Origin: a virus
Lineage: Duplodnaviria > Caudoviricetes
Direction: 5' to 3' (one strand)
DNA: 64,000 nt
Virus record (IMG/VR): IMGVR_UViG_3300028833_000087
Coordinates: 57,434-121,433 of that record
In this document: positions 10,657-39,040 of the stretch, in pieces
How positions within the stretch are numbered: position 1 is the stretch's first letter
Layout: each line of letters begins with the position of its first letter
The notes under the pieces: model-generated
Databases searched by the model: none
Seen by the model: the letters and a program-made list of their open reading frames with translations, nothing else
What the model was told of the DNA's origin: nothing
Position numbers and translations under genes: made by a program

Positions 10657-10734
10657 AATAAGTCCCTAGGGAGAAAATCCCTAGGGATATTTATTTCTGT
10701 CAGCATTAAAAAATTCGATTATATATTATAATTG

Positions 10735-11235
10735 TGATAGGTGGATAGTCATACGGATCCACATTAACTATCCATGCAGCCGAAGCAACAAGTTTCGGAA
10801 CACAGTCGTATCTGGCTACGCAAGCGACGATAAATAAATCAAGTGTAGAAGATGACTCGTCGAACCATATCGCGAGTATAAAAATACATGGTTAAGAATG
10901 GCTTCTAACTTGTAAAAGAAGAATGCAATTTATATTGCATGACTTAGAGCCCGAGCAAAGCTCGTTAAACAATACTCGTAACAGGGTCCTGAATGCGAGT
11001 ATAAATAATATTTGGGTTGTAGCAAGGCTTGAGCTAGCGTAAAAACCAGAGAGCTACACGCTGCTGTAGTAGACCATCGCGTGTATAAATAAATAGAGTG
11101 GTCGAAGCCTTTGATTCCGCATGGAGCCCTGGGTCAAAGGAAAGCCAAGGAGAAAAAAGGGCTCCGTTTTAACAACAGGGCAAAAGAACAACGGGCTAGT
11201 GTAATACTAGCCCGCCCGTAATGGGTTTTATTTTT
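10735..11235 (+). ncRNA. Large structured ncRNA with four repeated pseudoknot modules
   Basis: No ORF, GC-richer than flanks, promoter motif 10719-10731, terminator 11192-11214, many complementary segments. Confidence 0.75.
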
Positions 11236-11678
11236 TATAAGTATTTATAAGGTTCTTCACTTCTACCATCTTTAGTTTCTACAACGATTATACTTCCATC
11301 AAAAAAGCTATAAATCTTAGGATCTAATAAACTGAATCTTGATACATATTTTCTTTTTTCATAATTATCCTGAGGGAATCTTAACACCTCAGCATAATTA
11401 TCACACAGTATAACTTGATGCATATTCTCATAATCTATATCTTGAGATTTTAATTTAAATATATCATAGTATTTATTATTATAAGAATAATGAGTATCAA
11501 TATATGCTTTAGTAGTTATAGGTAATAATTTATAAGTACCATTAAAATTATTAACTGAATTAATTTCATTTGCAATTATAAGCATTTTCTCATCTAAAGT
11601 TCTATATTTATAAAAATTATCCCAATCATTTATAATTTTTATAAGTTCTATTTCAGTATCATTATTTATACAAATCAT
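11235..11678 (-). CDS. Hypothetical protein
   Basis: 147 aa, GAGGAGG SD. Confidence 0.7.
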   Translation of the reverse strand: MICINNDTEIELIKIINDWDNFYKYRTLDEKMLIIANEINSVNNFNGTYKLLPITTKAYIDTHYSYNNKYYDIFKLKSQDIDYENMHQVILCDNYAEVLRFPQDNYEKRKYVSRFSLLDPKIYSFFDGSIIVVETKDGRSEEPYKYL

Positions 11679-11945
11679 CTAAGATACCTCCTCTTTTTAT
11701 TAAGAATGTAAAGCTGTATATTTATAGTTATATATTATAAATATGGAACATATAGTGATTCACCAAAATACTACGCTTACCTCGTAGTCATAACGGGTAC
11801 GATGCACCCGAAGCATCCCCACAGCAAACCTAAGCTAATGGTAAAAATTCTGGCACAGGTATTGGATTCGGCCTGGTTAAATAATAGAATTGTAGGGATA
11901 GGTAAGATCCCACTTCCTAATTATATTAGGAGAAAGGAGGTCGTT

Positions 11946-12965
11946 ATGATAACCTCTACAAATTTTGGTACCGAAAACTTTGCAAAGTCCGCATCAGAAG
12001 TATTGCGGAGCGCTAAATCTGTTGTGTTGTATGTCCACGACGGATTGTTTCATGCTGATGATGTACTGTGTGCTGTTCTGTTCGAGGCACATTATAAAAA
12101 TATCGACAGAAAGGTTATTCGCCGTCGAATGACAATTGATGATATCGAGGAGTTAAAATCACTCGACGATGGCATCACCCGTATTGTCTGTGATACAGGG
12201 TGTCAGGATTTAGTCACAGACAACTTGTTAGTGCTTGATCATCATTCGGATAACAAGTTAACTTACATGAATGGTGTACAGTATGCAGCTGTAGGAAAGT
12301 TTGCTAGCTGCTTACGCTGGGCATTTCCTGATTCCAAGATTGCATCATCAGGCCTGTATAATTTTCAGAAGACAGTGCTCTGGCCAGTTGAAGTTCAGGA
12401 CAATGGTCAGAAAGCTGAGGATCTGAACATCCAACTGTATCCTAATTTATTTAGCTGGATTAGTGTTTTCAACTGCTCATGGAATGAAGATTGGACCGAG
12501 TCTAGTGACAGATTCTTTGAAGCAGTTGAGCTGGCGACTAAAATCCTTGATCGCCAGTTTACAAGATTGGAAGGTCTGGTCGAAGCTTGGGAAATAGTAG
12601 AGAATGAAATTGAATCTCTGAATCCTTCCGAGATACTTGTTCTTGGCAAGTATGTTCCTTGGCAGGAGCCGGTAATTGGATATAATCAGCTACATTGTAA
12701 CCAGATTAAGCTGATTATATTTAAGTCCACCGGAGATCAGTGGAACTGCCAGTGCGTCCCTGTAGCACTTGGTAGTTTTGATACGATAATTAAAGCACCG
12801 GAAGAATGGGGAGGTAAGACAGGAGTTGAGCTTGAAGTCCTGTCTGGTATAGAAGGAGCAGTATTCTGTCACCGTGGACTTTGGCTCACTGTATGGAAAA
12901 CAAAAGACGCTGCTCTTAAAGCTGCAGAATTAATTCTGGATAAAAATTCTACAGAAAGCGAATGA
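11946..12965 (+). CDS. MYG1 (UPF0160) family DHH-like exonuclease; start moved to 11946
   Basis: HDGLFHADD, DHH, GAVFCHRGLW motifs; AAGGAGG SD before 11946. Confidence 0.85.
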   Translation: MITSTNFGTENFAKSASEVLRSAKSVVLYVHDGLFHADDVLCAVLFEAHYKNIDRKVIRRRMTIDDIEELKSLDDGITRIVCDTGCQDLVTDNLLVLDHHSDNKLTYMNGVQYAAVGKFASCLRWAFPDSKIASSGLYNFQKTVLWPVEVQDNGQKAEDLNIQLYPNLFSWISVFNCSWNEDWTESSDRFFEAVELATKILDRQFTRLEGLVEAWEIVENEIESLNPSEILVLGKYVPWQEPVIGYNQLHCNQIKLIIFKSTGDQWNCQCVPVALGSFDTIIKAPEEWGGKTGVELEVLSGIEGAVFCHRGLWLTVWKTKDAALKAAELILDKNSTESE

Positions 12966-13097
12966 AAGCCGCAGTGAAAGGTTAAAATCTGTTATATTAA
13001 ATAAACATCTAGGCTCATTTGCCTGGGTGTTTATTTTTAAGCAAAATCACACATATATAATCTATTAACTTTATTTTTTATTGTAAAGGAGGCTATA

Positions 13098-13808
13098 ATG
13101 ATAACAGTAGGTAGATTTATTATATTAAGTGCAATAGTATTTTCTTTATTATGTCTTGTTATTCTGTATTTTATTTATAAATCAGAATCACCAACACAAA
13201 AAGAACATTCTAAAGCAAAAGAATTTTTATCTAAATTTAATGATATTATATATCAAAAATTAGTAGAAGCTGCAAAGAAATATAATATAGATGAAAAATT
13301 TGATGATTATTTTGCTTTTGAAGATTCAATATTAGAATCTGGATTTATTTTATCTTGGAACTATATAAAGGATAAAGTAAATGAAGATACAGAATTAACT
13401 AAAAAGATTAAATATAAATTATTTAGCACAAGTGATTTTACAATAGACTATATAAGATCAAATATAGTAGTTAAATCTGATATAAGAAAAATAATTAATA
13501 ATATTTGGCTTGAGAAGTTTGAAAGGCGTATCGAGGAATTAGAAGAGGAAGAAGATATTTCTTATGGTATAGATGAAGAAGGAAACAAAGTACCATTAGT
13601 TGGAGATGATTATATCGAAGATGTAGATATGGAAGATATAGAAATAGAATCATCTGAAGACTTTGATTCTGGTATAGAACCTATGCTTCAACAAAAGATT
13701 ATTCCTCCTTCTGAAGCTGAATATGTTACAGAAGTAGATGAAAATGATGAGATTATAATTGATAATAATGGTAGAAAACGTAATAAGAAAAATGGTAGAT
13801 TTGTATAA
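13098..13808 (+). CDS. Hypothetical membrane-anchored protein with acidic C-terminus
   Basis: 236 aa, SD, N-terminal TM. Confidence 0.75.
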   Translation: MITVGRFIILSAIVFSLLCLVILYFIYKSESPTQKEHSKAKEFLSKFNDIIYQKLVEAAKKYNIDEKFDDYFAFEDSILESGFILSWNYIKDKVNEDTELTKKIKYKLFSTSDFTIDYIRSNIVVKSDIRKIINNIWLEKFERRIEELEEEEDISYGIDEEGNKVPLVGDDYIEDVDMEDIEIESSEDFDSGIEPMLQQKIIPPSEAEYVTEVDENDEIIIDNNGRKRNKKNGRFV

Positions 13809-13822
13809 GGAGGATAAATAAT

Positions 13823-14008
13823 ATGGAATTAAGAATAAATGGTAAAATAGTTAGTGATAATAATTCTTTATTACTTACACAATACAAATCAACTGAACCT
13901 TTTATAGCTCAGTCTGATGCTATATATAGAAAGAATCAGGAAGAATATAGAAAGAAGTTAATAGAAGAAATAAATAGAAGAAGTGCTGAAGGAAGTTATG
14001 ATGTTTAA
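13823..14008 (+). CDS. Small hypothetical protein
   Basis: 61 aa, AGGAGG SD. Confidence 0.65.
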   Translation: MELRINGKIVSDNNSLLLTQYKSTEPFIAQSDAIYRKNQEEYRKKLIEEINRRSAEGSYDV

Positions 14009-14055
14009 AAATAAAATACTCCTAGGCTATATAGCCTAGGAGTAAATTTTTCTTT

Positions 14056-14358
14056 TTACTTCAGAGACTCTTTGAAAGCCTTAGCCGGCTTAAACTTAGC
14101 AACCTTCTTAGCAGCGATCTTAATGGTCTCACCAGTGATCGGATTTCGCCCTTCACGAGCAGAACGCTTTACAGCTTCGAAAGAACCAAATCCAGCAATC
14201 TGAATCTTATCACCCTTAGCTACAGTCTTTTTGATTACATCAGCTGTAGTGGTGATTACATCAGATACAGTTGCCTCTGTAAGAGTGTTCTTTCCTGCTT
14301 TCTTGTACTCGGTGTTAACCTTTGCCTGTACTGTCTTTGTGAGTTCTTTTTGAGTCAT
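14056..14358 (-). CDS. hup: HU family DNA-binding protein
   Basis: IAGFGSFEAVKRSAREGRNPITGETIKIAA..KFKPAK. Confidence 0.95.
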   Translation of the reverse strand: MTQKELTKTVQAKVNTEYKKAGKNTLTEATVSDVITTTADVIKKTVAKGDKIQIAGFGSFEAVKRSAREGRNPITGETIKIAAKKVAKFKPAKAFKESLK

Positions 14359-14515
14359 CTCTCGTTCCTCCTTGTGTTTTAAAATGTTTATTGGTTAATA
14401 TTAGCATCATTGCTATATATTAATATGTAGTTATATTGTTAGAATTTAATAAAATATATTTTCATTATATATTATAGATATGACACAATAGTAAATTTAT
14501 TTGGAGGATTATATA

Positions 14516-14824
14516 ATGGACAAAATGAGTGATTATGGCGCAACTTATTATCGAAAGAAAATTTCAGATAAAATTGATTGTAAATTGCTTACAATACCAG
14601 AAACATATTGTTTTGACAAATTTGGTCAATATGGACAAGAATCAAATGAATTTTATAAATATACGAACAGAAATGAGATAGATGAAGAAAATGAAGAATT
14701 TGAAAAATATTCAAAGATAAGAAATTATGTAATGTGCGATAGTGTATCAGAATTTTCAGAAGTTAATTATAGAAATATATCTTCTGATCATAATTGGTGT
14801 GGACAATTATCAGATTATAAATAA
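14516..14824 (+). CDS. KISD-motif family small protein
   Basis: KMSD, KISD, QLSD motifs; GGAGG SD. Confidence 0.65.
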   Translation: MDKMSDYGATYYRKKISDKIDCKLLTIPETYCFDKFGQYGQESNEFYKYTNRNEIDEENEEFEKYSKIRNYVMCDSVSEFSEVNYRNISSDHNWCGQLSDYK

Positions 14825-14838
14825 AGGAGGTTAAGTTT

Positions 14839-15000
14839 ATGGTTATCGAAGATCCTGAAATTATGAACTACATTGAGCATGTAGAACAAATTTATTTTAT
14901 CACTGGAATGTTTTGTGGTATAACAGTAGCAGCTTTAATAATTTTTACAATAATAACTGTATACATTACAAAAAAGATGGACGTTAAGGAGGATAAATAA
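14839..15000 (+). CDS. Small membrane protein (not in ORF track)
   Basis: AAGGAGG SD, 53 aa with one TM helix. Confidence 0.6.
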   Translation: MVIEDPEIMNYIEHVEQIYFITGMFCGITVAALIIFTIITVYITKKMDVKEDK

Positions 15001-15134
15001 TATGGAAAAATCTATTGAAGAATCAAATAAATTATTAAGAATTATTATAATTCTTGAAATTGGCGGTTTAATTATAAACGCAATATCTACAACAGCTTTA
15101 ATGATTTTAATTGGAGAATAAGGAGGATTTATTT

Positions 15135-15608
15135 ATGAAAGAAATCAATATTACAGTATATGAAACTGAAGATGGTAAGAGATTTTATGATAAAGAAAAA
15201 GCTGAAGAATACGAGAAAAAATTTAATGAATCTACTGCTTTGTCTGAAGCTTTAAATAAATTTCGTATAAAAGAAAAAGGACCTCAATATCTTCCTAATG
15301 ATACACCTTCGTTGATGCCAAAAGATTATGATTGGTTTTATGTAGAAAGTGAAGAAGAATATGATGAATTGAATAAATTATTATATAAGATGTATAATGG
15401 AAGATTTCATCAGCAGTTCAGTAGTAGTAAACGAGATATGTTAAAATTTCCGACTTATATTTATTTGTCTCATACTTTTAATAATTTCGGTGCTTTAAGT
15501 ATATTAGAAGAAGAGCATAATAGATATGAAAATAACTGGAAATATTTTTTTAGTTTCTTTAACAATTTAGATGAAAAAAGAGATCACGGTGTATTGGAGG
15601 AAGAATAA
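15135..15608 (+). CDS. Hypothetical protein, paralog of 16281-16769
   Basis: Shared YxTxDGKxF..AEE and WFYVxSEEE motifs. Confidence 0.75.
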   Translation: MKEINITVYETEDGKRFYDKEKAEEYEKKFNESTALSEALNKFRIKEKGPQYLPNDTPSLMPKDYDWFYVESEEEYDELNKLLYKMYNGRFHQQFSSSKRDMLKFPTYIYLSHTFNNFGALSILEEEHNRYENNWKYFFSFFNNLDEKRDHGVLEEE

Positions 15609-33399: not shown

Positions 33400-34497
33400 A
33401 TGAAAGTTCTGCTTATAGGTATTGGTGCTGCTGGTAATAAAGCTGTAGTTCAAGCTGTAGAAGATAAGGTTATTGCTGAAGAAGATTCTATTATTATTAA
33501 TTCTACTGATAAAGATTTCCCAAAAGAATTTAATGGAAAGAAAATGATTTTATCTCCTAATAATCAGGGATGTGGTAAAGAAAGAGCAACTGCCTATGCT
33601 TTTACTAAAGCTCTAATTGAAAATGATACTCTTAATATTGATTGTTCTAAATATAATACAGTAATTGTTTGTGCATCTGTTGAAGGTGGTACAGGATCTG
33701 GTTCAGCTCCTTTGATTGCTAAATACTTTAAGCATGTCCATAATAGAAATGTACATGTGATTGCTTTTATTGGATTTGAAGATGATCCTAGAGGATTATC
33801 AAATACTGTAGAATTCTTTAAAGAATTAGAATCTGATCTTATTGTACAGACTATTAGAAATTCTTCTTTTATGAAACAAGCTGGTGGTAATAAGTTTAAA
33901 GCTGAAGAATTAGCTAATAAAGAAATGAGCAAGAGAATTAAGATTATTACTGGTCAGCAGTTTCTAAATTCTGAACAGAATATTGATGATACTGATATTC
34001 TTAAAGTATCAAATACTGCAGGATATATGACTGTAGAAGAAAAGTATTTAGATAAGAATTTAGAAACTGTAGAAGATTTTAATAAAGTGGTTAAGAATAT
34101 GATTTATAATTCTCACTCTATTAAATCTAATTCTCCTAAGGCTATTCGTATTGGTGTTATTCTTAATATTGAACCTGGTTCAGAAGATGCTATTGATTAT
34201 ACATTTACTGATATCACTGAAGCATATGGTAATCCTTATGAAAAATATCTTCAGAAACAATGGGATGGTAATAAAGAATATATTCAGTGGATTGTATCTG
34301 GTATGCAGATGCCGTTAGATGAGATTAAAGAGATTTATGATAGATATCTTGCTGAATCTGATAAGGTACAGAAAGACGCTGATACTTTCTTTAAAACAAT
34401 GGAAACAATGCAGATGGATAGTAGTAATTCTAGATTCGATATGATTAAACCTGAAGAAAAGAAAATGAGCAAAGATGCATTTTTAAAGAATCTATAA
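33400..34497 (+). CDS. Tubulin/FtsZ family GTPase (PhuZ/TubZ-like)
   Basis: GIGAAGNK, GCGKE, GGTGSG signature, IDDTD T7-like loop. Confidence 0.9.
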   Translation: MKVLLIGIGAAGNKAVVQAVEDKVIAEEDSIIINSTDKDFPKEFNGKKMILSPNNQGCGKERATAYAFTKALIENDTLNIDCSKYNTVIVCASVEGGTGSGSAPLIAKYFKHVHNRNVHVIAFIGFEDDPRGLSNTVEFFKELESDLIVQTIRNSSFMKQAGGNKFKAEELANKEMSKRIKIITGQQFLNSEQNIDDTDILKVSNTAGYMTVEEKYLDKNLETVEDFNKVVKNMIYNSHSIKSNSPKAIRIGVILNIEPGSEDAIDYTFTDITEAYGNPYEKYLQKQWDGNKEYIQWIVSGMQMPLDEIKEIYDRYLAESDKVQKDADTFFKTMETMQMDSSNSRFDMIKPEEKKMSKDAFLKNL

Positions 34498-34502
34498 TTA
34501 AA

Positions 34503-34528
34503 ACCCTGGACGAATATTCGTCCAGGGT
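34503..34528 (+). terminator. Terminator after tubulin gene
   Basis: ACCCTGGACGAATATTCGTCCAGGGT palindrome. Confidence 0.75.
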
Positions 34529-34542
34529 AATATATTAAATAA

Positions 34543-34555
34543 TAATATATTATAA
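34543..34555 (+). promoter_or_regulatory. Putative early promoter driving array 1
   Basis: TAATATATTATAA, one mismatch to window-wide motif. Confidence 0.6.
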
Positions 34556-34579
34556 ATATGAAAGGAGGTTAATAATTTT

Positions 34580-35093
34580 AGTAATTGTGTAGTTGCGTAC
34601 TACGATGTGCGGTTAGGCTAAGTATATGCTTTGTATTGTGCGGTAGAGCGATGTGGTGTATATGTATAGTAGTGTATTATTTTAGTTCAGTAGAGTAAAG
34701 TAAATGTGAAGTGAAGTGCTGAAACTTGTAGTGTGGCATATGTAAGGTTTGACAATGTATTGTCGAGTAAATGTATAGTGAAGTATGGTAACGCCTAGTC
34801 AAGTACAGTAGTGTAAATGCATAGTCGAGTCCTGTGTCGTAAATGTATTGCCAGGTAGTATGGTGTACTAGTATAGTCACTTACTGCTCAGTATAGTCAA
34901 GTAAATGTATTGTGACGTAGCATAACGTTATGTTCAGCGGTGTAAATGTATAGCGACGTAAAGTTTAGTTCTGTAAATGTATGGTAATACACATTGTGCC
35001 AATACGTGGTAATGTATTTGTAAAGTAAGGTATATTTAAATTACGTGAAGTAAATGTAAAGTAAGGTTGGGTAAAGTATTATTAAGTAAATAT
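34580..35093 (+). repeat. Pentamer-register array 1 (about 14 units: AWATGY + 4-8 x NNNGY); putative guide RNA array
   Basis: Hexamers at 34583, 34624, 34660, 34702, 34738, 34769, 34815, 34841, (34867), 34903, 34944, 34975, 35016, 35052, 35088; spacings 5n+1 except one 42. Confidence 0.85.
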
Positions 35094-35106
35094 TTAAAGA
35101 AAGGAG

Positions 35107-35412
35107 ATGGTGTTTATGCATGATATGAGAAGAAAGAAAGATCGAATTTGGCGTGAAGCCAAAGGAATCTGCTCTCATTGTGGTCATAAGATCTATAGTA
35201 TGAGAAATAAAACTTTAGATCATTTTATTCCAAAATCATGCTTCGGATCTTATGATGAGAGAAATTTATTTGCGCTATGTAAAAGATGTAATGAAGAAAG
35301 GGGGAATGCTCTTGTAGGACTTGATTACTATGTATATGCGTCTGAAAACAAAAAGATGCAAGCATATCAATACGGACTTGAATACAATACCAGAACATCT
35401 TCTATGCAGTAA
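35107..35412 (+). CDS. Small HNH endonuclease embedded between arrays 1 and 2
   Basis: CSHCG...TLDHFIPKS..G....NL..LCKRCN; AAGGAG SD. Confidence 0.9.
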   Translation: MVFMHDMRRKKDRIWREAKGICSHCGHKIYSMRNKTLDHFIPKSCFGSYDERNLFALCKRCNEERGNALVGLDYYVYASENKKMQAYQYGLEYNTRTSSMQ

Positions 35413-35745
35413 ATGTATAGTGTAGTGAAGTGGAGCCCAGTAAATGCAAGTTAAAGTCTAGTATCATATGGTATAGTACAGTAAAGTATATGTAAAGTAC
35501 GGTGTAGTAAAATACAGTAAATGTTTTGTAGGGTATTGTGCCATTTTGTGAAGTGATTGTATGGTGAAGTAGAGTACAGTAAATGTAAGGTGTAATGGAG
35601 TATGGTCTGGTAAAGTAGATGTGAGGTAACGCACAGTTTTGTGCTGTTGGATGATGTATATGTAAGGTGAGGCGTAGCAGTGCTGAGTCGTGTGGTGTAA
35701 TGGCGAAGTGGTGCAGAGTCATGCTTTGTGATGTAAAGTAATTGT
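35406..35745 (+). repeat. Pentamer-register array 2 (about 9 units)
   Basis: Hexamers at 35411, 35442, 35488, 35519, 35555, 35581, 35617, 35658, 35699, 35740; spacings 31,46,31,36,26,36,41,41,41. Confidence 0.9.
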
Positions 35746-35750
35746 TCGAT

Positions 35751-35790
35751 TATACAAGCATACTTACAATTTAGTAAGTATGCTTGTATA
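35751..35790 (+). terminator. 17-bp hairpin closing array 2
   Basis: TATACAAGCATACTTAC-aattta-GTAAGTATGCTTGTATA. Confidence 0.7.
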
Positions 35791-35811
35791 TATCCGAAAG
35801 GAGAATATTTA

Positions 35812-36705
35812 ATGAGTTTATTTGATAATTTTTTAAATCAAATAAAAGAAAGTCCTAAATCTGAAAAAGTTCATATTCCTCTATATAATACTATAGAGTA
35901 TAAAATATCTACTTTAGTAGATATGATAAATAATGTAGATTCTATATCTGATGAAGAATTAAAGAATGTAATCATAAGACAGCATAAAATGATATTAAAT
36001 TATGATCCATTCTTATCTAATCAAGATACTAGAAGATCTGCATTAAAGTTATTTACAAATAAAAGGTTCCTTAATTTATTTCTTGAAGTTATTGGATTCT
36101 TGGATTTATCAAGAGAACAAGTTATTTGTATAAATAAACTTGCTTATGATTATTATGTATCTAATAATAAAGAAAAAGAAATATCAGAACTATTATTATC
36201 TATTTGCTATCTTATCAATAATCAATTGATTATTCGACTTTCTGCAAAGATGGATATTACAAATGCGAGAGTTTTATCAATGATAGCTAACTCTACATTT
36301 AAAATAGAAAAGAAAGTTCATAGAGTAAATGTATTCTTTTTAAAGAAAGATACAAATAAAGAATTTACTGTACAAGATTATATAGATATTTATATAATAC
36401 TATTTGATCATTTTAGAGAATTATTTACATATTCAATGTTTGAAGCTTGGACAACTCCTATCACAGATGAGTGTGCTCAATTACAATATGATAGATTCTT
36501 AAGAATGTCAGCAGCTTTAATAATTATGCTTGATAGTTTAACAAGTAAAGATATAGCGACAGTATTAAGAGAATATGGCTACACTTTGTCTATGATACCG
36601 AATAGTCCTATTAGATTTTCTATAAAGAATATGAAAAAGTATGATAGAATCAAAGATATAGCACATAGTCTTGAAGTAAATGAAAATGATATTTTAATTC
36701 CCTAA
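35812..36705 (+). CDS. Hypothetical alpha-helical protein
   Basis: 297 aa, AAGGAG SD, terminator at about 36700-36722. Confidence 0.8.
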   Translation: MSLFDNFLNQIKESPKSEKVHIPLYNTIEYKISTLVDMINNVDSISDEELKNVIIRQHKMILNYDPFLSNQDTRRSALKLFTNKRFLNLFLEVIGFLDLSREQVICINKLAYDYYVSNNKEKEISELLLSICYLINNQLIIRLSAKMDITNARVLSMIANSTFKIEKKVHRVNVFFLKKDTNKEFTVQDYIDIYIILFDHFRELFTYSMFEAWTTPITDECAQLQYDRFLRMSAALIIMLDSLTSKDIATVLREYGYTLSMIPNSPIRFSIKNMKKYDRIKDIAHSLEVNENDILIP

Positions 36706-37821: not shown

Positions 37822-38586
37822 ATGGTTGAAGAACAGGTAATGAAGGTGCGTTTAACGTTCCTGCAGGATGTGCTGGGAACACAGCCCACAGACTCAAAGA
37901 TCTATGAGTCCTTTCTGGCTACCAAGATGAGAAAAGAAATGGAGAAATCTGGGTACAAGGAAGAGAAGATCGATGAGAAGATCAATAAGGGTATGGAAGC
38001 ACTTCCGAACAACGAAGATGGGGAATTCTATCGTGATGGCGTTACGGTATTTCCTCGTCTGAAGATCAAGGAAACCGGAGAAGAGATCCCGGCTATTGAA
38101 GGATACTTACTCAAAGGATTCTTCAAGAATGCATGCTGGGCATGTGCAAAAGCAGATGGATTGTCCGCAGAACTGTCAGCTTACAAAAAGTACATTGACA
38201 ATATGACTGATGTAAATGAGATCAGTCCTATCATTGTCAACGACGATGTAAAGAAATACATGGAGGAGCATAAAGGAACTCTTCCTTTATTTCAGCGTCC
38301 GATCAGAATTTCCGACAGAAATGGTGAGCGTGTAGCGCTTGCTTGCTCAGAGTATGTACCGGCTGGTAGCTATATCGATTTTGAAATCACAGCTATGTCT
38401 GAAGAGGCATTGAATTTCGTTATCGAATGGCTCAACTACGGCAAGCATAATGGACTTTGCTGCTGGAGAAATTCTGGTAAAGGAAAGTTTGACTGGATCG
38501 ATCTTGATCTTGGTGCTAAGAGGGAGATTAATCCCAAAGCAATCAAGAAAAAAGGTAAGAAAAAGAAAGCTGACGATGAGGAATAA
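37822..38586 (+). CDS. Stand-alone Cas7/Csm3-like RAMP protein (putative guide-binding effector)
   Basis: N-terminal strand MKVRLTFLQDVLG; PAIEGYLLKGFFKNA (cf. PxIPGSSLKG); EYVPAGSYIDFEI (cf. ExVPxGxxFxF); C-terminal Gly loop GLCCWRNSGKGKF. Confidence 0.75.
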   Translation: MVEEQVMKVRLTFLQDVLGTQPTDSKIYESFLATKMRKEMEKSGYKEEKIDEKINKGMEALPNNEDGEFYRDGVTVFPRLKIKETGEEIPAIEGYLLKGFFKNACWACAKADGLSAELSAYKKYIDNMTDVNEISPIIVNDDVKKYMEEHKGTLPLFQRPIRISDRNGERVALACSEYVPAGSYIDFEITAMSEEALNFVIEWLNYGKHNGLCCWRNSGKGKFDWIDLDLGAKREINPKAIKKKGKKKKADDEE

Positions 38587-38619
38587 AATGTAGCAACAGT
38601 AAAGTATAGTTTTGCTACG

Positions 38620-38654
38620 AATGCTGGGTGGAGAAATCTACCCAGCATTTTTTC
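38620..38654 (+). terminator. Intrinsic terminator between RAMP gene and array 3
   Basis: AATGCTGGGT-N10-ACCCAGCATT followed by U-tract. Confidence 0.75.
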
Positions 38655-38663
38655 TAAATCCTT

Positions 38664-39040
38664 GTATATGTAAGGCAGAGTGTGGTATCATCGTGTGTGG
38701 TAAATGCAAGGTGCTGCCAGGTAGAGTACATTATGTGTATAGTGCCGTCGAGTTATGTATATGTGTAGTATAGCATATTCCGGTCATGTATAGTATATAT
38801 GAGGTAACGTATATGTAAGGTGCAATCAGGTGAAGTGGTATTTCGTACAGTATATGTATTGTGAAGTGAAATACGGTCGGGTTTGGTTTAGTATATGCAA
38901 GGTGGGGTTAAGTATAGCTCCGTCGCGTATGGTAACGTATATGTGAGGTTTAGCGTAGCGCCGTGAGATATCGTATATGTGAGGCGGGGTATAGTGCAGT
39001 CTAGTAATGGTAAAGCTATGTGTAATTTGGTGATGTGCAT
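38664..39040 (+). repeat. Pentamer-register array 3 (about 11 units)
   Basis: Hexamers at 38666, 38702, 38733, 38759, 38795, 38811, 38852, 38893, 38939, 38975, 39006; spacings 36,31,26,36,16,41,41,46,36,31. Confidence 0.9.

Follow-up and report, generated by a model that had tools for sequence, protein, structure and literature searches.

The stretch analyzed here (the window, 64,000 nucleotides [nt]) is the final 64 kb of the 121-kb IMG/VR record IMGVR_UViG_3300028833_000087, a ruminant gut phage genome with an estimated completeness of 49% and 29% G+C, and its subject is a small HNH nuclease gene that lies inside the guide RNA (vrRNA) arrays of a VIPR system, an RNA-guided DNA silencer described in 2026 preprints (bioRxiv 10.64898/2026.04.26.720920, 10.64898/2026.04.26.720927, and 10.64898/2026.10.15.759431). 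The gene is read tentatively, with a probability of about 0.45, as a captured free-standing HNH cassette that would be co-transcribed with the guides and would not be a core component of VIPR. The reading is based on the seamless excision of the cassette, which leaves a 36-nt unit and is flanked by a 7-nt direct repeat, on the lack of such a gene in or next to the arrays of 80 related Vipr loci, on array-free homologues, on a probable HNH-less relative (a contig of 18,009 bases [b]), and on a classic address of homing endonucleases. The original prediction had named three possibilities, a nuclease recruited by the RAMP filament, a guide-diversifying enzyme, or a mobile HNH that landed in the array, and the evidence (none of 80 Vipr loci, array-free homologue with 71% identity) leans to the last. 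The features of the interrupted region and the third array are as follows.

35085 to 35091, plus strand: left direct repeat AGTAAAT, read directly; the strains of two other sequencing runs, X4 and X5, regain homology at 35087.
35092 to 35414, plus strand: HNH cassette of 323 nt, consisting of a 24-nt 5' untranslated region with a Shine-Dalgarno sequence and the coding sequence, with no 3' untranslated region.
35116 to 35412, plus strand: coding sequence of the HNH nuclease, 98 amino acids (aa), with a Pfam match, residues invariant in 10 homologues and a structure model with a predicted local distance difference test (pLDDT) score of 92.
35408 to 35414, plus strand: right direct repeat AGTAAAT, read directly, overlapping the TAA stop codon.
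34578 to 35091, plus strand: vrRNA array 1, about 15 units of NNNGY pentamers with AWATGY delimiters, tiling score 145 compared to 8 ± 6 in shuffles.
35409 to 35745, plus strand: vrRNA array 2, about 9 units, tiling score 109 compared to 8 ± 6 in shuffles.
38660 to 39020, plus strand: vrRNA array 3, with ATATGY delimiters, tiling score 104 compared to 16 ± 6 in shuffles.

The arrays were scored against shuffled sequences by dynamic-programming tiling with NNNG[TC] pentamers and 6-nt A[AT]ATG[TC] delimiters. With scores of 145, 109, and 104 for arrays 1, 2, and 3 and of 8 to 16 (standard deviation about 6) for the shuffles, these three arrays, all on the plus strand, are the only stretches above threshold in the 121-kb record. 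The delimiters are spaced by 5n+1 nt or by the sum of two such units, and 86% of the pentamers have G at position 4 and 98% have T or C at position 5. When positions 35092 to 35414 were excised in silico, ...ATTAT TAAGT was joined to [AAATGT] ATAGT... in a 36-nt (5n+1) unit, and owing to AGTAAAT on both sides seven excision registers are equivalent. The tiling score across the excised junction was 27, compared to −9 to 1 within the cassette. The excision being seamless, arrays 1 and 2 are one array split precisely at a guide boundary, a single array interrupted by the 323-nt cassette with no guide destroyed.

The open frame on the plus strand at 35107 to 35412 matches Pfam HNH (3.3e-8, better than the cut-off) and HNH_5 (6.9e-8). 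Its true start is most likely the ATG at 35116, giving 98 aa, because the Shine-Dalgarno sequence AAAGGAG (35100 to 35106) ends 9 nt before this codon but 0 nt before the ATG at 35107, and because homologues start at the corresponding Met; MHD or MFD is the N-terminus in all HNH homologues and according to the gene callers. From the last boundary of array 1 (AGTAAAT, 35085 to 35091) there are 15 nt to the ATG at 35107 and 24 nt to the ATG at 35116, and the earlier figure of about 14 nt past the last array 1 hexamer agrees with the former. The overlap of the stop codon with the first boundary of array 2, also predicted, was found as well: CAG TAA ATGT occupies 35407 to 35416, and the stop at 35410 to 35412 falls within GTAAATGT (35409 to 35416), a sequence present 21 times in the window compared to 3 expected. 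Since the boundary motif contains TAA, any open reading frame (ORF) entering the array would terminate there regardless. The TAA is the gene's own stop, because array-free homologues (the 71%-identical one, at locus L100) end at the same residue. The ribosome-binding site of the HNH gene lies in unstructured RNA (z −0.7).

The ORF is, as judged from its sequence and structure model, a real gene for a predicted catalytically intact, bare HNH nuclease of the His-Me finger class. The zinc ligands C19, C22, C55, and C58, the catalytic pair D35-H36, and N50 and N59 are conserved without exception in 10 homologues of 47 to 99% identity, and the model (pLDDT 92) consists of an N-terminal helix, a beta-beta-alpha-metal core, and a C-terminal helix; the fold, the catalytic His, the Asn ligands, and the two CxxC pairs expected of PF01844 are thus all present. 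Structurally, the model comes nearest to the HNH domains of Cas9 and Cas9d, McrA, Cap5, and the 112-aa Geobacter (Gme) HNH nickase 4H9D, with E-values of 2e-7 for the profile against 4H9D and 1.6e-4 for Foldseek against a Cas9 HNH, and the closest NCBIfam models, IscB and Cas9, are both far under their cut-offs. The phage HNH shares the beta-beta-alpha-metal core, the CxxC...CxxC zinc site, and the D-H...N...N catalytic set with the Cas9 and IscB HNH domains and with small stand-alone HNH nickases (PDB 4H9D, 9K32, and 8F43); in contrast, its identity to them is just about 25 to 29%, and it is not part of a larger RNA-guided enzyme. The 98-aa model comprises solely the HNH core and the terminal helices, and no DNA-binding module was found in it. 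That the gene has become an inert passenger, the decaying and inactive remains of an old insertion, is very improbable: its small size, its restriction to one lineage, and its location in non-coding DNA would suit such a remnant, but the invariance of the zinc ligands and catalytic residues among those 10 homologues, the confident model, and a frame intact in several samples oppose it. A terminase-associated HNH of the HK97 gp74 type was considered separately and ruled out, the neighbors being the genes for tubulin, ORF297, a DUF7666 protein, vipr, and NrdD/G, with no terminase.

Co-occurrence of this HNH with loci carrying RAMP and arrays, the check attached to the original prediction, was not observed among 80 related Vipr loci. 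In these 80 fetched loci, no HNH was located inside or adjoining an array (0/80). Some HNH was present within 10 kb in 13 of the 80, the nearest one 512 nt off in a replication module, and six Vipr loci had HNH ORFs 1.8 to 2.3 kb beyond the arrays with several genes between. Close relatives of the protein form only five clusters, with 64 to 100% identity, among 5.8 billion clustered proteins. The exhaustive search with the HNH profile yielded 14,585 proteins at E ≤ 1e-3 and just 2 at E ≤ 1e-30; among the matches are independent proteins of about 100 aa and proteins of 340 to 430 aa with the domain at the N-terminus, and none of them has a Vipr-like part fused to the HNH. The 71%-identical homologue of L100, a 6.2-kb contig, is encoded between the genes for a DnaA-like ATPase and a WYL/WCX regulator, and neither vipr nor 5-nt periodicity of any dialect was found on this contig; the 191-aa gene downstream of the HNH belongs to no family, lacks similarity to ORF297, and has no Atlas match. 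No array accompanies the 46% homologue of locus L101 or the 30 to 40% homologues of 18 viral and 14 bacterial loci, and in the inspected loci with 30 to 40% identity early or DNA-metabolism phage genes, Mom-like and MazG-like, were seen. A blastn search with the locus against INPHARED phages gave nothing, and tblastn gave only unannotated gut phage records with 31 to 33% identity. Within the 121-kb record, this gene is the one PF01844 HNH; the only other HNH is of the HNH_3 type (homing-endonuclease-like), in a 268-aa frame outside the window (G000:C1:30684-30770).

The array-HNH-array block as a whole is, on comparison with related genomes, itself inserted at a conserved gene junction, so that the arrangement is nested: the HNH within an array and the array within the junction between the tubulin gene and ORF297. 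The block is bordered by the following features.

33400 to 34497, plus strand: gene for a PhuZ/TubZ-like tubulin, the left conserved flank (Pfam Tubulin 2.8e-10, PHROG tubulin PhuZ 1.5e-13).
34503 to 34528, plus strand: hairpin (−21.1 kcal/mol, z −7.2) downstream of the tubulin gene and ahead of an AT-rich leader; the hairpin is missing from the short tubulin/ORF297 junctions of relatives.
34560 to 34568, plus strand: orphan Shine-Dalgarno sequence GAAAGGAGG at the head of array 1, with no start codon after it.
35745 to 35798, plus strand: long hairpin closing array 2 (−26.5 kcal/mol, z −10.5).
35812 to 36705, plus strand: ORF297, a gene of the jumbo-phage core that forms the right conserved flank, with native codon use (codon adaptation index [CAI] 0.74).

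ORF297 has more than 200 homologues, on contigs reaching 273 kb. In 11 of 15 jumbo-phage relatives from IMG/VR, which are distant and without the whole array, its homologue directly follows the tubulin gene after a gap of 4 to 40 nt that holds a Shine-Dalgarno sequence only, and no array, HNH, or vipr was found within 10 kb in these relatives. The junction in this phage spans about 1.3 kb (34498 to 35811) and contains, in order, the hairpin, the AT-rich leader, GAAAGGAGG, array 1, the HNH gene, array 2, the second hairpin, and GAAAGGAG. The latter 8-mer is part of the orphan Shine-Dalgarno sequence and recurs at 35797 to 35804 as the native Shine-Dalgarno sequence of ORF297, so that a direct repeat brackets the inserted block. 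In large phages, free-standing homing endonuclease genes are typically found at conserved intergenic junctions, and as the gap between tubulin and ORF297 is merely 4 to 40 nt in relatives, the block occupies such a classic intergenic site. The T4 mob genes and the like are free-standing HNH homing endonuclease genes of large phages; these too are small HNH genes with their own ribosome-binding sites, located between conserved genes and distributed patchily among relatives. In contrast to them, the gene described here lacks a DNA-binding module and is nested in a guide RNA array, and polymorphic presence or absence at this exact site is indicated only indirectly. In many jumbo phages, tubulin and ORF297 are a conserved gene pair with apparent translational coupling, and ORF297, which belongs to no known family, may be a partner of the tubulin.

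The locus itself appears from sequence and structure modeling to be a VIPR system and a new member of the published kind, with an NNNGY dialect, short tail-less units, and a split layout. The combination of a RAMP protein and guide arrays proposed at the outset thus matches VIPR, the three pentamer arrays being accompanied by a Csm3/Cas7-like Vipr model. Two further features belong to this part of the locus.

37822 to 38586, plus strand: vipr, encoding a lone RAMP (Cas7-like) protein of 254 aa (model pLDDT 88, Foldseek match to Csm3 with an E-value of 3e-7).
38619 to 38656, plus strand: intrinsic terminator separating vipr from array 3, with a 14-bp stem and UUUUUU after it, part of a fold of −31.2 kcal/mol.

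The top 30 Foldseek hits of the Vipr model are all Csm3 or Cas7 subunits, and the Vipr profile matches the G-loop regions of Csm4 and Cas7 with an E-value of 3e-3; the 254-aa protein has no match in Pfam, PHROG, NCBIfam, or PADLOC. A Vipr protein is recognized as a minimal RAMP by its RRM core, G-loop, and thumb, and on the basis of the model and the profile the protein agrees with this description. Its homologues number 111 listed proteins and at least 471 loci in IMG/VR, and an array of the same grammar is located within 1.5 kb of the Vipr homologue in 75 of the 80 loci. One of them, L002 (IMGVR_UViG_3300035520_000350, 10700 to 15300), is a 243-kb phage whose vipr homologue is followed by an uninterrupted pentamer array of about 4.5 kb, a length far beyond that of the arrays described in the preprints. 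According to the preprints, a lone ancestral RAMP protein (Vipr) polymerizes on vrRNAs of GGY/NN pentamers, other repeats (NNNGG, YNNNG, and NNNNG) and "staggered" head-to-tail arrays occur, and seven types with accessory Vap proteins are distinguished.

The reference member of VIPR is Escherichia phage SUSP1. The alignment of the Vipr family with Vipr of SUSP1 by hhalign is weak (E 0.004, probability 9%), and the two share the G-loop motif G-x-G-x-W-R...G-[KR]-F, which reads G-V-G-D-W-R...G-R-F in SUSP1 and G-L-G-Q/C-W-R...G-K/R-F in this family. In SUSP1, vipr is located between NNGGY tracts, NNGGY repeats of all four vrRNAs were seen in two intergenic sequences, and the tiling method also detected a known vrRNA tract downstream of vap1. 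Like SUSP1 and the published VIPR, the locus has a lone single-RRM RAMP flanked by non-coding arrays in 5-nt register and is phage-borne, and YNNNG repeats and head-to-tail arrays are mentioned for VIPR in the preprint. It differs from SUSP1 in the repeat, NNNGY instead of NNGGY, and from the published systems in the short units of 3 to 9 pentamers without a tail, in the location of two arrays 2.1 kb from vipr past two native phage genes, and in the protein-coding gene within an array, which the text seen of the three preprints does not describe. According to the structure preprint, D177 of SUSP1 Vipr reads the first G of GGY. The aligned residue in this 254-aa Vipr is C214, and the family, with Gln or Cys at this position, has the consensus Q. 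A Gln or Cys in place of D177 would fit the relaxation of the first G to N in NNNGY and possibly represents the structural basis of the dialect.

Several observations weigh against the capture of a free-standing HNH. A protein reduced to its catalytic domain, with no DNA-binding module, would be an atypical site-specific homing endonuclease, and nucleases that need a partner are typically of this kind. The sole PF01844 HNH of the record sits inside the roughly 1.2 kb that the VIPR arrays occupy. The gene is intact and in the same place in three other ruminant-gut samples despite guide replacement or deletion, and it is probably present in a lineage with a Vipr of 60% identity (HNH 82%, ORF297 89%), where its retention argues that selection keeps the HNH working. 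HNH-domain accessory proteins are reported from other VIPR types (10.64898/2026.04.26.720920, Fig. S21), and an HNH-less allele of this exact array was not seen directly in the four runs.

These observations bear on the possibility, itself doubtful, that the HNH is a Vap-like nuclease arm of VIPR: the Vipr-vrRNA filament would open the target, and the HNH recruited in trans would nick or cut it, whereby silencing would be turned into destruction or guided homing of the cassette would be driven. A Cas9-HNH-sized catalytic domain with no targeting module would suit this role, as would the probable co-transcription with the guides, the position in the arrays of the only PF01844 HNH in 121 kb, and catalytic residues kept across strains and in a diverged lineage despite guide turnover. 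The predicted nucleases of VIPR types III to V, including an HNH-domain Vap (10.64898/2026.04.26.720920, Fig. S21), also point this way, whereas the same preprint attributes nucleases to the host-encoded defense-island types III and V, and the phage-encoded types are reported as silencing DNA, not cutting it. These HNH Vaps are likewise HNH nucleases encoded in a VIPR locus but are described as larger, with extra regions, and as part of host-encoded systems enriched in defense islands, whereas the protein here is a bare 98-aa phage domain that is not conserved throughout the Vipr clade. Both vipr and the HNH gene have non-native codon use, which is consistent with a common role: vipr is a strong compositional outlier (G+C content at third codon positions [GC3] 0.46, CAI 0.45) and the HNH a mild one (GC3 0.26, CAI 0.59), compared to 0.20 and 0.70 ± 0.09 for the genome, and the DUF7666 gene and ORF297 between the array-HNH-array block and vipr have a native-looking composition.

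The arrays of all 80 related Vipr loci without an HNH, the 71% and 46% homologues without any array, the probable HNH-less relative, and the lack of HNH-RAMP fusions among the profile matches count against recruitment, as do the decoded guides, whose matches to the neighboring genes of the cassette were no more frequent than those of shuffled guides, the guides being short and a suited target database missing. With respect to conserved synteny with vipr, by which a Vap is recognized, the HNH was confined to this phage and its strains, with probable presence in one other lineage. Absence from related loci and an array-free homologue had been fixed beforehand as findings that argue against recruitment, and since both were made, the HNH is not classed as a Vap. 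Of the proposed recruitment by the RAMP filament, there thus remain the bare domain, its intact state, and the HNH Vaps reported for other VIPR types, set against 0/80 Vipr arrays and the unrelated context of the 71% homologue. The bolder version, in which the HNH would be the trans-acting cutter of a phage VIPR, its mRNA would be an in-register "unit" of the guide precursor, and the Vipr filament would bring the HNH to targets in rival phages, into which the array-HNH cassette may thereby be copied (RNA-guided homing), is rather unlikely.

The HNH gene is probably transcribed together with the guides. The expected lack of a terminator between the promoter motif and the hairpin was borne out, as no terminator-like site was found by the terminator scan at 34529 to 35750, a pattern scan that overlooked the intrinsic terminator at 38619 to 38656 (found by folding), and the hairpin at 35745 to 35798 is real. 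The promoter motif itself, placed at 34543 or 34544, was not established: it occurs 8 times compared to 3.1 expected, a number reached by 1 of 100 shuffles, and the signal of a sigma-70 scan of the locus was no better than chance. A metatranscriptome contig of 157 nt (35347 to 35503, zero differences) spans the 3' end of the HNH gene into array 2, and other Logan contigs from the same single RNA library, in which DNA carry-over is possible, cover array 1 and vipr. Co-transcription thus remains plausible from the missing terminator, the unstructured ribosome-binding site, and the bridging RNA contig, the share of DNA in that library being its weak part. The terminator 5' of array 3 implies that this array would need its own promoter or read-through. 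Directly after the vipr stop, at 38586 to 38656, a small hairpin encloses array-like sequence and is followed by the terminator with the 14-bp stem. No known RNA family, hammerhead included, was found at the locus with Rfam, and no tRNA; a search of IMG/VR for a 28-mer spanning the array 2 start gave no exact match. Guides decoded under seven pairing rules (N1N2+x, N1N2N3, and others) were compared to the record, to every fetched locus, and to the genes on either side of the cassette, the latter in this phage and in eight relatives. They matched no more often than shuffled guides did, but the guides are short and the target database suited to them is missing, which makes this comparison uninformative.

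To follow the persistence of the gene, the locus was compared to Logan contigs from other samples, three DNA runs of ruminant gut and a metatranscriptome. In a bovine-gut contig of 4,402 b (run X4), the HNH is kept with 9 differences in 471 nt, the guides at 34907 to 35087 are replaced, 103 nt of array 2 (35557 to 35661) are missing, and array 3 differs; from 35087 on, at the left cassette edge, homology is restored, and the second run, X5, shows the same pattern. No contig skipping the cassette was present in the four runs. The genes flanking the variable guides are more than 95% identical between strains, so that the guide differences amid them indicate rapid guide turnover. Guide content was found to vary among the strains at 34787 to 35087, 35557 to 35661, and 38673 to 38849, where guides are replaced, deleted, or shortened by whole pentamers.

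This turnover next to the cassette touches on the idea that the HNH serves the array, either by processing the precursor at the AWATGY boundaries or by nicking boundary DNA for the gain and loss of guides. The boundary motif borders the cassette and the guides next to it differ between strains (34907 to 35087 replaced, 35557 to 35661 missing in X4), but arrays with this grammar persist in the absence of such a gene in 75 of the 80 related loci, array 3, distant from the HNH, varies between strains too, and HNH enzymes of this class are DNases, not RNA processors. Such a role is improbable, and nothing was found in support of the guide-diversifying enzyme proposed earlier.

In more distant relatives, the co-location of proteins on a contig was deduced from equal contig size, a procedure checked once (P0126, 4,402 b, is record 18 of X4). 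On this basis, a JGI contig of 4,563 b probably carries ORF297 (89%), HNH (82%), and Vipr (60%) together. Two further contigs, neither of them in any HNH cluster, combine ORF297 with Vipr: a Logan contig of 18,009 b (76% and 56%, respectively) and one of 8,331 b (46% and 47%). By these identities, the HNH is old enough to have diverged alongside a native gene and is under purifying selection, but it is probably not universal among the VIPR-bearing relatives. Between the lineages, Vipr diverges far faster (60%) than ORF297 (89%) or the HNH (82%).

If the gene is a captured free-standing HNH, it would have been acquired by microhomology at the repeated boundary motif or would have homed there. 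Its transcription would come from read-through of the array precursor and its translation from its own ribosome-binding site, and the product would act alone as a small metal-dependent enzyme that nicks or cuts DNA. Persistence would be favored by the in-register insertion at a boundary, which would destroy no guide and gain strong transcription free, and cutting by the HNH may promote recombination that moves the gene and the neighboring guides to sister phages.

Under capture, the gene would be an ordinary mobile HNH in an unusual place, an in-register gene in a vrRNA array being undescribed in the preprint text available. Even if it is only a passenger, the locus shows that vrRNA arrays tolerate the in-register insertion of a gene at a guide boundary, that arrays move into conserved gene junctions, and that guides turn over quickly between strains. 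Should the HNH instead cut in trans for VIPR, the system would be the first VIPR encoded by a phage to be armed with a nuclease, as well as the first whose nuclease is embedded in an array. A minimal RAMP filament would then obtain its cutting activity in trans, through a 98-residue nuclease encoded on the guide transcript; this would bear on how CRISPR effectors gained nucleases and would suggest a very compact programmable cutter.

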